64,000 nt of DNA from Candidatus Spongiisociaceae bacterium (GTDB lineage Bacteria; Actinomycetota; Acidimicrobiia; Spongiisociales; Spongiisociaceae), in the NCBI GenBank assembly GCA_965262915.1, contig OZ253564.1:2592001-2656000 (forward strand). Direction: 5' to 3'. Position numbers and translations under genes: made by a program. Each line of letters starts with the position of its first letter. The stretch's first letter is position 1. Below are positions 1 to 5,019 of the stretch, piece by piece. The notes below the pieces were generated by a model. That model worked only from the letters and a program-made list of their open reading frames with translations, had not been told where the DNA came from and made no database searches.

Positions 1-521
1 AAGCGAACTCGGTCGCTGGTGTCCGGTACCGCTTCCATGTCGCCCAGCTTCACCAGACCCAGGACGGCCACGGCCGCCCGGCGGTCCTGGAGTCCTACCT
101 CCCCGGCGGTCCTCGTCAGGTACTCACCCTCCCCCAGGCTGGTCACGTAGATGGTCTTTTTCTTCCTCTTGTCGAAAATCTCCAGCGGCCTCGCCTCGAG
201 CGAAGCTCCCGTGGCGAACTTGGCCGACTCCAGGAAGATCCTCCTGCAAGCAACCCGGTGGGGGCGCCCGCACGGGAAACGTAACATCGTGTCATGGTCC
301 CGGTCGATCTCCATGCCGCCCATGACAGCCATGGCCCGTGCCACGAACCGGGTTCGCTCGGCTGCCCCCTCGCGGGAACTATACGAGTGAACGAGGAACC
401 GGGCCCCGTCGTCGGCCGTCTGCTCGTACAGGCCGAGGGTTATGTCCTGGCAGTGCGTGTCCATCGCCACCAACTCGATGCGCCGGCCGATCGACTTCAG
501 ACGTCTGGTCCCTACGGCCAT
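1..521 (-). CDS. Hypothetical protein, runs off the window edge
   Basis: Manual translation gives an open frame from ATG 521 (MAVGTRRLKSIGRRIELVAMDTHCQDITLGLYEQ...) to position 1, with a GGAG RBS-like motif upstream and GC-rich third positions. It is absent from the ORF track because its stop lies outside the window. Confidence 0.65.
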   Translation of the reverse strand, partial: MAVGTRRLKSIGRRIELVAMDTHCQDITLGLYEQTADDGARFLVHSYSSREGAAERTRFVARAMAVMGGMEIDRDHDTMLRFPCGRPHRVACRRIFLESAKFATGASLEARPLEIFDKRKKKTIYVTSLGEGEYLTRTAGEVGLQDRRAAVAVLGLVKLGDMEAVPDTSDRVR

Positions 522-663
522 ATCACTCCGGTGGGGTCGCGATACCTACGGATCGAATGCTATCAGTTTGGGCAATCCGGTAGCCGACCATCAGCGCCAT
601 TGGTGAAACCACCGGCCACCCTTCACCCAGACCGTCCGTCGGTGAGGAGTCCGCAGGTGTAAC

Positions 664-1239
664 TCACCGGTCAGGCACACCGGCCGCTGGCCACTGACCA
701 CCGGCCACCGACCCGTAGGTGGCGGCGAGTCGCTGGTAGGCCACCACGCCGTGACGCTGGCGCTCGATCTCGGCCTCGGTCAACTCCCGCACCGGCTTGG
801 CGGGTATGCCCATCGCCAGGGTCCACGGCGGGATAGTCCTCCCTTCGGGGAGCAGGGCCCCTGAGGCAAGCCAGGCGCCGTTGCCCAGTACCGCTCCGTT
901 CAGCGCGCGGGCGCCGATCCCGACCAGGCAATGGTTCCCGATCGTGGCGCCGTGGAGCACCACGCTGTGGCCGACCGTGGAGTGGTCGCCGACGGCACAC
1001 GGGAAACCTTCGTCCACGTGCATCACGACGTTGTCCTGGATGTTGGAGTAGGTGCCTACTTCGACTCGATCGAACTCGGCCCGGATCACCACCCCGAACA
1101 TGACCACCGCGTTTGCCCGGATCGCAGCGTCGCCGTATATGTGGACTCCGGGGGCGATAAAGGCCGATGGATGGATGACCGGGCTACCCATCGGTATCGG
1201 TTCGGTCGGGTATTCCGGTGGCATCGAGTTTCCGTGCAT
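664..1239 (-). CDS. Gamma carbonic anhydrase / hexapeptide-repeat family protein
   Basis: Left-handed beta-helix repeats and His motifs (NIQDNVVMHVD, VGHSVVLHGATIG). Start ATG 1239 sits 7 nt after TACAGT (-10-like); 1224 is an alternative start. Confidence 0.88.
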   Translation of the reverse strand: MHGNSMPPEYPTEPIPMGSPVIHPSAFIAPGVHIYGDAAIRANAVVMFGVVIRAEFDRVEVGTYSNIQDNVVMHVDEGFPCAVGDHSTVGHSVVLHGATIGNHCLVGIGARALNGAVLGNGAWLASGALLPEGRTIPPWTLAMGIPAKPVRELTEAEIERQRHGVVAYQRLAATYGSVAGGQWPAAGVPDR

Positions 1240-1288
1240 CGGGAGCACTGTAATGGGGCCTATATACTTGAGTGCCCATGCGGGCTGC

Positions 1289-2572
1289 TCAGGCATACTG
1301 TTCTGCGGCGACCACTTGCGTCCCCGCCCCGAGAGGCGAGTCGGTCTCACGGTGGTTGTTTGTAGTGCGCGCCGCGTCAGGTGGTGGCCCCTCCCGACCC
1401 CGGACCTGTGGGAAGGCCCGGGCGCATATGTTCCTGGCGGCGTTGACGTCCCGGCACAGGCTGAGACGTCAACGCCCGCACCGATAGACTCTGGTTCCGA
1501 GCGGCATCGGCTGGCGATGCCCGCACCGGGAGCAATCGGTGCTGGTATGGGAAGGGCTCACCTTCACATACGGGACACCAGCTTTCTCGGCTTTGTGTCC
1601 CAGTACGAGGTCGAAGGTACCCCACCGCTGTTCCGACATCTTCTTGGAGTATCTGCGGGAGCGGAGCAGTCCCGCGATGTTGAGGTCCTCGACGGCGACG
1701 CCGTCCAAGGAAGTAACGAGGTCGTGGGCCAGGCGGAAGTCCGCCGCCCGGGCTCTCTCGGTTTCCCTGCGCCGGACCCTGGCCACAGCAGCCCGCTTCT
1801 TGGCCCGGGACCGAGATCCCCGTTGTGCCCGTGCCAGACGCCGCTGGTACCGGCGGACAGTCACATTGTCGATAGTCCGCGCCGGTACGTACCGCCCGTC
1901 GGACAGTGCCATCCGCGTTGTGAGGCCCTTGTCTATCCCCACCGGGTTCAGGGGAGCGGACACCACCTCAGGATCCGCTCCATGTTTGAGCACCGCGTGT
2001 ATCTCCACCCGCAACGGGGTGCGCACCACCCGCAGCTCCACCACCGTGCCAGCATCGAGAGCGGCGGCCAGCCGTCCGTTGCGATCGCAGAACCTGGCTG
2101 CGGGGACTCCCTTGACCCGCAGACGCCACCATCGACCCACGGGACCCGGCGGTACGAGCATCGATGCCCTCGCTCCCACTATCTCTATGCTTCTCCACCG
2201 GTGTCGGGGCTTGAAGCGGGGGTATCCGGGCTTGGTCCCTTCCTTGCTGCAGCGCTTGTAGAAGGACTTGACCGTACGGTCGAAACGACAGATGACGCCC
2301 CGGCCCACCCTGGTGTCCACCGCCGCCCAGCGGGGATCCTCGTTCCGGACCAGGGTGAACATCTTGAACAGGTCGTAACGGGACAGGTTCCGATCCGCGG
2401 GGTACTGCCCAGCTCCCGGGTTGTGTTCCCTCCACCACGCGTAGGTGCCCTTCCAAGACTCGAGGAGGGCGTTGTACATTTCGCAGGAGATGGCCAGTAT
2501 CTCATCCAGGCAGCGGTGTTGGGACGGGGAGCACTTCGCCGTGAACCTCAACGTCGTCACCCGAGAGGACAT
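1289..2572 (-). pseudogene. tnpB: RNA-guided endonuclease TnpB with an in-frame TGA at 1469-1471
   Basis: Motifs KPGYPRFK, RuvC-I VGIDKGL, RuvC-II VAVEDLNI and Zn finger TSTDCSRCG...YRCGR*. The frame continues past the stop as RLSLCRDVNAARNI (RuvC-III) to a TGA at 1289. Confidence 0.9.
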
Positions 2573-2578
2573 AGTCTC

Positions 2579-2600
2579 ATAATAGTTGGGGGTTGTGACA
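2579..2600 (-). promoter_or_regulatory. Putative leaderless promoter of tnpB, PafBC/RecA-NDp-like
   Basis: TGTCAC-N10-TATTAT-N6-ATG, compared with the actinobacterial PafBC motif TGTCGG-N10-TA-N3-T. Confidence 0.4.
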
Positions 2601-2785
2601 CTTCGAGACAATGTGGGCACTCACGTATATAAGCCCCACTGTAATCAACTGTAGCGGTCCGTACCGCCCGACCACGCTGCGCTGTTGACACCGGCTACGG
2701 CCATCGCATACGCTTCTGACGCTGGTGCGAGGTCCGGCGGGACGGGCCGGATCGGCACTCGGACTGTTACTACGGGGAGGTCGGC

Positions 2786-3562
2786 ATGGTGCGGTTCAAG
2801 GACCGGGTTGCGGTGGTGACCGGAGGAGCGTCGGGGATCGGCGGCGCCACCGCCAGGGAGTTTCTCCGGGCGGGCGCCGGCGTGGTGGTCATCGACCTGC
2901 AGCCCGTGGATCACGACTACCTGACCCGCGATCTCGACTGCTCCCCCGACTCACTCCGGTCGATCCAGGGCAGCGTGGCGGAGATCGACGACTGCCGTCG
3001 TGCGGTTGCCGAAGCCGTGGACAGCTTCGGCCGCATCGATTGCCTGGTCAACAACGCCGCCAGCTTCGTGGTCGAGGCACTGGATGTGACCAAGGAGGAC
3101 TGGGACGCCAGTTGGTCGACCAACGTTCTGGGATCGACCAATATGGTCCAGGCCGCCTTCGAGCCCCTGAAGGATGTGGGGAACGGGGCCATCGTGAACG
3201 TGGCCAGCGTCGTCGCGGTGGTGGCGAAACCGGGTGCTTGGACGTACCACGGTACCAAAGGGGCTGTGCTGGCGATGACGATGTGCATGGCCCTCGACCT
3301 CGGCGTTCACGGGATCAGGGCCAATACGATCAGCCCTGGCTGGACCTGGACCGAAGCGACCGCGGCCATCATCGACCGCAAGGCCTACGAGGAATACATC
3401 GTCCCGCACATGATGCTGAACCGCTGCGGGGAGACCATTGACGTGGCCCGCGCCATCCTCTTCCTGTGCAGCGACGACGCGTCGTTCATAACCGGTACCG
3501 ACCTCAAGGTCGACGGCGGCTACAGCGCCATGGGGCCGGAGGGGAAGTCCCACCCGGTCTGA
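2786..3562 (+). CDS. SDR family NAD(P)-dependent oxidoreductase
   Basis: TGGASGIG, NNAA, YxxxK (YHGTK), ITGTDLKVDGG; GGAGG RBS. Confidence 0.95.
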   Translation: MVRFKDRVAVVTGGASGIGGATAREFLRAGAGVVVIDLQPVDHDYLTRDLDCSPDSLRSIQGSVAEIDDCRRAVAEAVDSFGRIDCLVNNAASFVVEALDVTKEDWDASWSTNVLGSTNMVQAAFEPLKDVGNGAIVNVASVVAVVAKPGAWTYHGTKGAVLAMTMCMALDLGVHGIRANTISPGWTWTEATAAIIDRKAYEEYIVPHMMLNRCGETIDVARAILFLCSDDASFITGTDLKVDGGYSAMGPEGKSHPV

Positions 3563-3590
3563 GTACCGGAGGCCCCCGACCCTCTTAATA

Positions 3591-3617
3591 CAGATTGAAA
3601 GTGGTAGTTTCAATCTG
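3591..3617. promoter_or_regulatory. Perfect 10-bp inverted repeat upstream of the AAA ATPase gene (operator-like)
   Basis: CAGATTGAAA-N7-TTTCAATCTG; TAGCCT -10-like box just before ATG 3644. Confidence 0.45.
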
Positions 3618-3643
3618 CACGGGATGCGGGTAGCCTGATCACC

Positions 3644-4813
3644 ATGATCGAGCGCGAGATCACTCCCCACCTGACCGCCCTCTTCGAGCACTACCCCTTC
3701 GTCACGGTGACCGGACCGCGGCAGTCCGGTAAGACGACCCTGTGCCGGGCGACCTTTCCCGACCTCGACTACGCCAACCTCGAAGCGCCAGACGTGCGGG
3801 AGTTCGCCGAATCCGATCCGCGGCGCTTTCTAGCCCGCTTCAGCCGGGGCGCGATCATCGACGAGATACAGCACGTGCCCTCGCTGTTGTCATACCTGCA
3901 GGTCCTCGCTGACGAGATAGGCCGGAACAGCCTCTTCGTGCTCACGGGCAGCGAGCAGTTCGGGCTTTCCGACACCATCAGCCAGTCTCTGGCCGGTCGG
4001 ACAGCGTTACTCCGTCTCCTGCCCTTCTCCCTGGACGAACGCCGCCGCACCGGCGCCAAGGACACAGTGGACGACATCATCTACTCGGGTTTCTATCCGC
4101 GCATCCACGACCGAGGGCTCGAACCCAGACAAGCGCTCCGCGACTACTTGGAGACGTACGTCGAGCGCGACGTACGCCGGATGGGCGGGATACGCAACCT
4201 TTCCGGTTTCCGGCTCTTCGCCCGCTTGTGCGCCGGGCGAGTCGGACAGCTGCTCAACCTCAGTGCGCTGGGTTCGGACGCAGGCGTGTCACACACGACG
4301 GCGCGAGCATGGATGACGACACTGGAAAGGAGTTACGTAACCTTCCGGCTGCGACCGTTTCACACCAACATACGGAAGCGTTTGGTCAAATCACCCAAAC
4401 TGTACTTCTACGACGTCGGGCTGGCCTGCTATCTCATCGGTATCGAACGCGTCGAGCAGATCGCTACCCACCCCCTGCGAGGGCCGCTGTTTGAGAACCT
4501 GGTAGTCGCCGAGGTGCTGAAGCACCGCTTCAATCAGGGCCGCCGATCCAACCTCTCTTTCTTCCGTGACTCGCAAGGATTGGAATGCGACCTCTTCTAC
4601 GAGAGCGGACAAGCCATCGGCGCCATCGAGATCAAAGCGGGTTCTACCGTGGCCTCCGATTACTTCCGTTCCCTGGACCGCGTCGCCGAGTTGATCCCCC
4701 GAGTCTCTTCCAAAGCCGTTGTCTACGGTGGCCTCACCAACCAGTCGCGAAGCAGGGGTGAAGTAGTGCCGTTGTCCCGGCTACAAGAGCTGCTTCAACG
4801 GTTGGAAACATAG
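3644..4813 (+). CDS. AAA+ ATPase with C-terminal DUF4143 (PD-(D/E)xK-like) domain
   Basis: Walker A GPRQSGKT, Walker B IIDEIQ, LTGS, SLAGR, KSPKLYFYDVGL, ECDL...AIEIK. Confidence 0.92.
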   Translation: MIEREITPHLTALFEHYPFVTVTGPRQSGKTTLCRATFPDLDYANLEAPDVREFAESDPRRFLARFSRGAIIDEIQHVPSLLSYLQVLADEIGRNSLFVLTGSEQFGLSDTISQSLAGRTALLRLLPFSLDERRRTGAKDTVDDIIYSGFYPRIHDRGLEPRQALRDYLETYVERDVRRMGGIRNLSGFRLFARLCAGRVGQLLNLSALGSDAGVSHTTARAWMTTLERSYVTFRLRPFHTNIRKRLVKSPKLYFYDVGLACYLIGIERVEQIATHPLRGPLFENLVVAEVLKHRFNQGRRSNLSFFRDSQGLECDLFYESGQAIGAIEIKAGSTVASDYFRSLDRVAELIPRVSSKAVVYGGLTNQSRSRGEVVPLSRLQELLQRLET

Positions 4814-5019
4814 ATTACAGGATCGATGCGTTGGAAGGCCTCGGCCTGCTCGTCCGTGACGGATCCCGGGAGGGCCTCGTCAGCGGCGGCCCGCACCGAC
4901 GGGATACTGTTCAAGACAAGACGGTCGTTCGCCCGTGACCTCGCCGAGCCCTATCTGTCTTTGGACCCGAAACCTACGAATAGTCGAATCGGCCCCTCGA
5001 CTACCTCACCGGTAACCGA

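Follow-up and report, generated by a model that had tools for sequence, protein, structure and literature searches.

A tnpB gene between IS1595-type ends in a Candidatus Spongiisociaceae genome: a probable transposase-less passenger element and a one-sided G at the insertion sites of its relatives

The element, its gene and its insertion site

The window analysed here, a stretch of 64,000 nucleotides of a Candidatus Spongiisociaceae bacterium (contig OZ253564.1, positions 2,592,001 to 2,656,000 of the forward strand), holds a unit of 1383 bp at 1255-2637 whose sole family-matched open reading frame (ORF) is a tnpB gene on the minus strand. The unit is bounded by terminal inverted repeats (TIRs) of 24 bp, which are identical at 22 positions and start on their outer side with GGGGC, and an exact 8-bp direct repeat, ACTGTAAT, lies flush against both of them (1247-1254 on the tnpB 3' side and 2638-2645 on the tnpB 5' side). 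A repeat finder ranks the arms 1254-1278 and 2614-2638 (25 nt, 92%) first among the 79 inverted pairs of the region, the remaining pairs being merely 70-88% complementary. The right TIR, on the tnpB 3' side, occupies 1255-1278 and reads GGGGCCTATATACTTGAGTGCCCA inward; the left TIR, on the tnpB 5' side, occupies 2614-2637 and reads GGGGCTTATATACGTGAGTGCCCA inward. Between the left TIR and the tnpB start lies a leader (2573-2613, minus strand), assigned from the sequence only. The initial annotation had already described tnpB as the single gene of such a unit, and both the sequence and the repeat finder bear this out.

Related genomes show that the unit is an insertion. When 41 of them were queried with window positions 1-5000, three of the same genus (G001, G007 and G002) proved to have both flanks adjacent and the element absent. 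One of the 41, G028, is marked as unpublished, and nothing concluded here depends on it. The junction in G001 reads ...gggagaaACTGTAATcacgg... and contains one copy of the octamer ACTGTAAT, which is the empty site that had been predicted to exist in relatives; those in G007 and G002 have ACTGTA with cc or ct after it. The element inserted between a hexapeptide-repeat protein gene (664-1239, minus strand) and a short-chain dehydrogenase (SDR) gene (2786-3562, plus strand, recognised by a family match), and it duplicated ACTGTAAT there.

The ORF matches the Pfam families OrfB_IS605 and Cas12f1-like_TNB and scores 129.6 bits with the NCBIfam model guided_TnpB (NF040570; cut-off 100), an intact relative reaching 179.9 bits; its scores with the IS200_TnpB and IS607_TnpB models lie below their cut-offs. 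Read from the ATG at 2572, it runs into an in-frame TGA at 1471-1469, within the second CxxC of the zinc finger. What remains is a truncated ORF of 367 aa (1469-2572, minus strand) with the RuvC-I Asp and the RuvC-II Glu. Past the TGA the same frame continues as RLSLCRDVNAARNI... for 59 further codons to a stop at 1291-1289. This former C-terminal part (1289-1468, minus strand), identified by translating the frame against the second genomic copy described below and by alignment, contains the rest of the zinc finger, the RuvC-III motif RDVNAARN and the tail; 34 nt separate the ancestral stop (1289) from the end of the element (1255). The TGA (1469-1471, minus strand) takes the place of a TGC for the third Cys of the C4 zinc finger, as judged from the second copy, which has TGC, and from the family alignment, in which this Cys is conserved in all nine other members. 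The Asp, Glu and Asp of RuvC and the C4 finger are complete in these intact relatives, and the window copy no longer has the full set. Because the change from TGC to TGA puts the RuvC-III Asp beyond the stop, the window TnpB is without its third catalytic residue, and to judge from its reading frame the gene is a pseudogene and this copy is dead. The captured RNA-guided nuclease claimed for the locus thus belongs to the TnpB family as supposed, and it is not an intact nuclease.

The window and the second copy differ twice in the zinc-finger codons (AGT TGC has become CGT TGA). Within window 1439-1476 these substitutions yield a perfect complement of nearby DVNA-coding words (GGCGTTGACGTC ... 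GACGTCAACGCC). Since a perfect complement of this kind is the signature of a quasi-palindrome template switch, the nonsense codon probably arose in one such event.

The host genome measures 5.06 Mb in one contig with 64% GC. Its only other copy of the element, besides a short TnpB-like fragment, lies at 763876-765066 and is 94% identical to that of the window. The homology sets in precisely at the outer G of the right TIR and breaks off at the match to window 2446, the left end being absent, so that the copy is 5'-truncated. Its tnpB has an unrelated N-terminal part of 105 codons fused in frame, giving a 493-aa ORF (C1:763552-770356), and it adjoins a tyrosine integrase gene and a Type ISP restriction-modification gene; the surroundings are probably a genomic island. 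A scan of the whole genome for paired ends found just two intact units of TIRs and duplication, namely the window element and an IS1595 element of 2271 bp (C1:248689-250959) with the duplication AAACATTG and TIRs that agree with those of the window at 13/24 positions. About 1.2 kb of this IS1595 element is passenger sequence, including a 183-aa ORF without a Pfam match. For the orphan TIR-like ends at 770653, 772940, 1444943, 1686095, 4452076, 276731 and 277835 the scan of the host genome found no partner ends; a Tn3 transposase fragment beside 4452076 was considered as a partner and dismissed for its wrong orientation.

Relatives, IS1595 transposases and a predicted RNA scaffold

Related tnpB loci of 67-70% DNA identity in four other genomes have the same ends, with the consensus GGGGCTTATATACCTGAGTTGACA. 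Among 16 close-relative elements, eleven are flanked by an exact 8-bp duplication and two by one matching at 7/8 positions. For a wider scan one genome per species was taken, which kept 80 of 412 relatives. Ends of the GGGnnTTATA type were then sought at 47 loci from relatives and metagenome, the window and the locus L036 being added; the metagenome contributed five loci, of which two gave clean ends. The source records are titled as metagenome-assembled genomes (MAGs) of Acidimicrobiia (including Ca. Spongiisociaceae), Thermodesulfobacteriota, Rhodobacterales, Paracoccaceae, Longimicrobiales, Bryobacterales and others. Altogether 31 independent insertions have a duplication that matches at 7/8 positions or better (26 exact, five at 7/8); they come from at least five phyla, in records titled Acidimicrobiia, Thermodesulfobacteriota, Rhodobacterales/Paracoccaceae, Longimicrobiales and Bryobacterales. 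The duplications vary between copies and share no fixed word of 4-5 nt; they are rich in A and T, above all at positions 1-3 and 6-8.

The search for further copies that the initial annotation had proposed has produced 30 additional insertions, each with its own duplication. Homologous tnpB loci without TIRs had been named as grounds for refutation; close relatives do carry the TIRs. Ends of the GGGnnTTATA type were not found on the distant proteins of Poribacteria, Chloroflexia, archaea and Peptococcaceae (at most 33% identity), and a quick maximum-likelihood tree of 39 proteins, with end labels assigned by a loose 10-nt pattern, sets these apart from the TIR-bearing TnpBs across a split of SH-aLRT 100.

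Which transposase could move such units? A protein search over the 29 genomes of the family detected IS1595-type DDE transposases in 19, which belong without exception to the two genera where tnpB elements occur. Those tested have the Pfam domains Zn_ribbon_IS1595 and DDE_Tnp_IS1595 and score 183-194 bits with the IS1595 family model NF033547 (cut-off 75), and TIRs such as GGGGATTATATACGTGAGTGCCCA lie upstream of their genes. Seven complete transposase-bearing elements of 2.6-3.2 kb have both TIRs and exact 8-bp duplications, and L069 and the 2271-bp element of the host genome are two more; complete elements of this kind include L156, L157, L159, L160, L162, L163, L164, L069 and L057. The closest comparison is offered by L156 of the congener G007, an element of 3090 bp whose two TIRs match the left TIR of the window at 23/24 and 22/24 positions and whose transposase reaches 183 bits with NF033547. 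Downstream of the transposase these sister elements carry passengers: C5 and N6/N4 DNA methylases, a nucleotidyltransferase and a DndB-like protein. The end motif is one that we take to fit the ISNwi1 group (ggnnatTAT) of ISfinder. In the other phyla, PF12762 was matched in four of five genomes with tnpB elements (21, 2, 13 and 13 matches), and the ends there share the outer motif GGGnnTTATATAC. The fifth, G049, contains a tnpB element and gave no PF12762 match in a 2.1-Mb assembly of uncertain completeness.

At 109 of 110 tnpB loci no transposase is present within 3.5 kb; the hit at the remaining one, L132, is a transposase gene into which a tnpB element has inserted. The Y1 (HUH) TnpA profile PF01797 found nothing in five genomes, that is, the host genome and four rich in these elements. 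The characters of the IS200/IS605 family (IS1341 group), namely absence of TIRs and duplication, hairpin ends and a fixed tetra- or pentanucleotide target, are not those of the window element. As for IS607, the unit has TIRs, a duplication and no second family-matched ORF, the genome not having been searched for serine recombinases.

The second peculiarity of these units concerns RNA. Intact ORFs extend into the right TIR, and we aligned the last 200 nt of 12 Acidimicrobiia elements. RNAalifold returned a consensus of 37 pairs in seven helices, with 95.7% of the cells paired. Compensatory changes occur in 14 pairs, against 5.2±1.7 in column shuffles (none of 500 reached 14) and at most four in slid controls, in which the partners were shifted by 1-3 columns. 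In helix 1, AUAUGC, about 200 nt upstream, pairs with GUAUAU of the TIR, with one-sided variation only; a hairpin just inside the TIR appears by eye to co-vary between subfamilies (CCUGAG/CUCAGG, CCGAAG/CUUUGG, CCUAGG/CCUAGG). Covariation thus points to a structured omegaRNA at the 3' side that reaches the end of the element. Hand-mapped from the alignment, the predicted scaffold occupies about 175 nt of the window (1255-1429, minus strand), overlaps the former 3' end of tnpB and ends with the element. From its position directly 3' of the scaffold, the 16-nt sequence ATTACAGTGCTCCCGA (1239-1254, read on the minus strand) is the predicted guide template; it consists of the duplication plus 5' leader sequence of the hexapeptide-repeat gene. 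We also considered the TIR itself as the guide and rejected this: the TIR is part of the covarying scaffold, and a guide of this kind would be directed against the left end of the very element that encodes it. An alignment of 18 sequences across subfamilies gave a poor consensus of 11 pairs, and the set of 12 was used instead. No Rfam family was accepted in window 1150-2750 at E up to 1, a match to ar14 (E = 0.21) being taken as chance.

Since their TIRs and 8-bp duplications match those of transposase-bearing IS1595 elements, we regard the tnpB units as IS1595 derivatives that would be moved in trans. The window element itself has the GG-starting TIRs, the 8-bp duplication and the ends shared with transposase-encoding elements, and has no DDE_Tnp_IS1595 transposase of its own. 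Because its only family-matched ORF is tnpB, it is better called a non-autonomous element than a full member of IS1595. Our reading, to which we assign a probability of roughly 0.85, is that it is a transposase-less derivative of the IS1595 family with tnpB and an omegaRNA scaffold as cargo, presumably mobilised in trans. An IS1595 transposase made elsewhere would bind the 24-bp ends and would move the unit through staggered 8-bp cleavage of the target. This agrees with the initial annotation in its essentials, the empty site, the TIRs and duplications of relatives and the transposase-bearing elements all lending support to a non-autonomous IS1595-type unit. Transposase-bearing elements with near-identical TIRs (22-23/24) occur in related genomes, and the host genome offers only diverged ends. 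The subgroup, however, is not IS1016 as had been suggested, because the partner transposases, all those tested, have the Zn_ribbon_IS1595 domain that is absent from the IS1016 group. The family is described, in the excerpted text of PMC8101967, as having an 8-bp duplication and a transposase with a Zn finger except in that group.

A one-sided G beside the duplication and the competing explanations

All 31 insertions were oriented by tnpB and the flanking bases counted. On the side of the tnpB start, the base directly 5' of the duplication is G in 29 of them (background 0.22; binomial tail 2.6e-17), and this G is preceded by T in 12. At the mirror position, after the other copy of the duplication, C is found in 10/31 (background 0.32); the two sides differ with 7e-7 by Fisher's test. 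The pattern was first noticed on 26 insertions, and G is present in all five that were added later. In the window the corresponding dinucleotide is TG (2646-2647, minus strand), a candidate target-adjacent motif (TAM).

The simplest reading is that the one-sided G looks like a TAM adjoining a guide-matched target in the unoccupied allele. In the IS200/IS605 and IS607 elements TnpB is thought to pay its way in that scarless excision leaves a site which the guide can recognise. For the intact relatives of our element we envisage that TnpB would bind an RNA with a scaffold ending at the right TIR and a guide drawn from the duplication and the next flank. The complex would recognise only the unoccupied allele, and cutting it would favour re-copying of the element. 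TnpB would then be a working retention module of a DDE transposon whose transposase makes no choice of a TAM, with G (often TG) as TAM and with insertions that persist almost only where it is present. For the guide and TAM taken alone we would offer nearly even odds, a little short of them; the full retention scenario, judged from sequence comparison, is tentative and has in our opinion about two chances in five. If it is true, the 29/31 would be a population-level footprint of RNA-guided homing on a cut-and-paste element.

Several observations weigh against what we propose. A TAM of one or two bases would be unusually short for TnpB, and the asymmetry of the G could stem from an asymmetric transpososome, which is the main rival to a TAM. 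No transposase with matching TIRs is encoded in the host genome, where the only IS1595 transposase has ends that agree at 13/24. The empty allele was not seen among contigs of three metagenome runs from three studies, all of which bridge both occupied junctions; since only the occupied allele appears, there is no sign of recent mobility at the window site. None of the 110 tnpB loci is an element with both transposase and tnpB, so that the capture event is undocumented. Of the 16 close relatives three have no duplication, 18 of the 47 scanned loci yielded no clean ends, and the phylogeny rests on a quick maximum-likelihood tree. Movement in trans, moreover, is deduced from the ends and duplications. 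As for the window copy, it is a stranded relic, because it has lost the RuvC-III Asp and its genome has no transposase with matching inner TIR sequence.

The G at -1 could instead be a target preference of the transposase, made one-sided by the difference between left and right TIR, with tnpB as inert cargo like the passengers of the sister elements. We find this somewhat unlikely, yet it is the explanation that survives best beside our own. The unrelated passengers of sister IS1595 elements fit it, and so does the decay of many tnpB copies, with stops among the tree proteins and in the window. The sister elements also have a mild G/C preference at both flanks: in 13 transposase-bearing elements with exact duplications, tabulated by hand, G or C stands at the corresponding positions in 6/13 and 6/13. 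This 12/26 is nevertheless significantly unlike the 29/31 of the tnpB elements (Fisher p = 9e-5), which moreover reach only 10/31 on their other side. Finally, RNA scaffold and catalytic residues have been preserved among elements whose proteins are about 35-80% identical, which argues for selection on TnpB function.

That TnpB, alone or with its RNA, is itself the recombinase and makes an IS1595 transposase unnecessary seems very improbable to us. It would account for the lack of a transposase inside any tnpB element, for the tnpB-oriented asymmetry at the insertion sites and for G049, which holds a tnpB element and no PF12762 match, a point that loses force with a 2.1-Mb assembly whose completeness is uncertain. 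The ends and 8-bp duplications, however, are those of transposase-bearing IS1595 elements, the transposases co-occur in the same genera and in four of the five other genomes, and TnpB is dispensable for transposition in the elements studied so far, according to the excerpted text of PMC8612924.

An ordinary IS200/IS605- or IS607-type tnpB nested in an older, unrelated TIR element is hardly credible. TnpB elements do normally belong to these two families, and the protein does score with their models, if below the cut-offs. Against this, the arrangement recurs across 31 independent insertions, the intact ORF enters the right TIR and the covarying scaffold ends there, and no possible IS605 or IS607 ends lie between tnpB and the TIRs. 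Y1 TnpA was not found in any of the five genomes searched, and the TIR-bearing TnpBs fall together on one side of the SH-aLRT 100 split in the quick tree. Chance similarity of the inverted and direct repeats, frequent as short repeats are in GC-rich DNA (79 inverted pairs in this region), can be dismissed, because orthologous sites lack the element and 30 further insertions have differing 8-bp duplications of their own, with TIRs identical in type to those linked to transposases.

Known systems and further observations

The transposase-less IS1595 derivative that we propose has precedents. Mobile insertion cassettes such as MIC231 of Bacillus cereus consist of the ends of an insertion sequence, a duplication and cargo, have no transposase and are mobilised in trans. 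Our element resembles them in each of these respects; it differs in that the cargo is an RNA-guided nuclease with an RNA scaffold fused to one end. With IS1595 elements that carry passenger genes downstream of a transposase of the Zn-ribbon and DDE_Tnp_IS1595 type, it shares GG-starting TIRs and AT-rich 8-bp duplications, whereas tnpB and omegaRNA replace the transposase. Solo tnpB units of the IS1341 type (IS200/IS605) are likewise non-autonomous, with tnpB as the sole gene and an omegaRNA at the 3' end. However, they lack TIRs as well as a duplication, are inserted 3' of a TAM-like target and need Y1 TnpA; all of this is contradicted here.

The closest published case is that of Altae-Tran et al. 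(2023, PNAS; PMC10691335), whose excerpted text describes six DDE-associated branches of TnpB, DDE-1 to DDE-6, with inverted terminal repeats, as well as solo TnpBs whose ends are nearly identical to those of transposase-bearing elements and which are presumably moved in trans. There as here, a prokaryotic tnpB lies between inverted terminal repeats with its 3' end near that of the transposon (within 250 bp there, 34 nt in the window), and solo units share ends with transposase-bearing elements. The TA motif reported in its supporting information at 8 bp from the end of DDE-5 is comparable in kind to the G at -1. Unlike our tnpB loci, where this is never the case, the association required a DDE gene within 1000 bp. 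The main text names IS630 only, and IS1595 occurs once, in the supplementary list of search profiles. A review of 2026 (PMC13565253), again in the text excerpted, lists ISL2, IS630 and IS1031 for DDE-associated TnpB and calls the value of TnpB to DDE elements debated. The parallel with Fanzor in eukaryotic TIR transposons (Bao & Jurka 2013, PMC3627910; Saito et al. 2023) holds insofar as a TnpB homologue rides on DDE-type transposons with TIRs and duplications; Fanzor is eukaryotic and a separate lineage, and the excerpted text of PMC3627910 mentions no association with Merlin/IS1595.

As far as these sources extend, the novelty originally suspected is therefore only partial: that TnpB can ride in DDE transposons, and that solo TnpBs are presumably mobilised in trans, was published in 2023 (PMC10691335). 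In the literature searched we found no paper that links TnpB to IS1595, the additional files of Altae-Tran et al., which may bear on the point, lying outside the search; as a TnpB partner IS1595 may be unreported. The oriented G is the one result that goes beyond the descriptions we found. In our opinion the interest lies in a TnpB clade from at least five phyla, mostly in MAGs of sponge-type symbionts, that occurs solely as cargo of transposase-less units with IS1595 ends, has retained its catalytic residues and RNA scaffold and shows a tnpB-oriented, one-sided base preference at its insertion sites. It would provide a concrete, testable case of an RNA-guided nuclease helping a DDE transposon and a source of compact nucleases whose TAM may be very short, even if the copy in the window is no more than an ordinary, dead relic.

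Some observations concern the neighbourhood and single relatives. The element ends 15 nt upstream of the probable ATG of the hexapeptide-repeat gene (1239, a start chosen by eye) and has cut this gene off from its former upstream region. The gene lies on the same strand as tnpB and may now rely on read-through or on a promoter within the element. Downstream of the SDR gene follows a gene for an ATPase with AAA_14 and DUF4143 domains (3644-4813, plus strand).

At L132, in a Rhodobacterales MAG (about 2980-4802), a tnpB element of 1193 bp with the duplication ATAAACTG sits inside an IS1595 transposase gene, which it splits near residue 97; the passenger element has here broken a potential helper transposase. 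The element at L036 (1031-11138) spans 10.1 kb between exact copies of ATAGAATA, with the halves of tnpB about 9 kb apart and genes for an ABC transporter, an alcohol dehydrogenase, an M20 peptidase and a luciferase-like monooxygenase between them. Its left junction recurs in a second genome (L035). At L027, L028 and L029, on a 182-kb replicon of G019, units of 1.6 kb hold a second TnpB subfamily of 480-495 aa with 23% identity to the first. These units have the same outer ends, one of them being GGGGCTTATATCTCTGGGTTGA, with six copies on the G019 replicon, and the two complete units lack matching duplications. One ORF of this subfamily, of 638 aa, fuses an MT-A70 methylase domain to TnpB.

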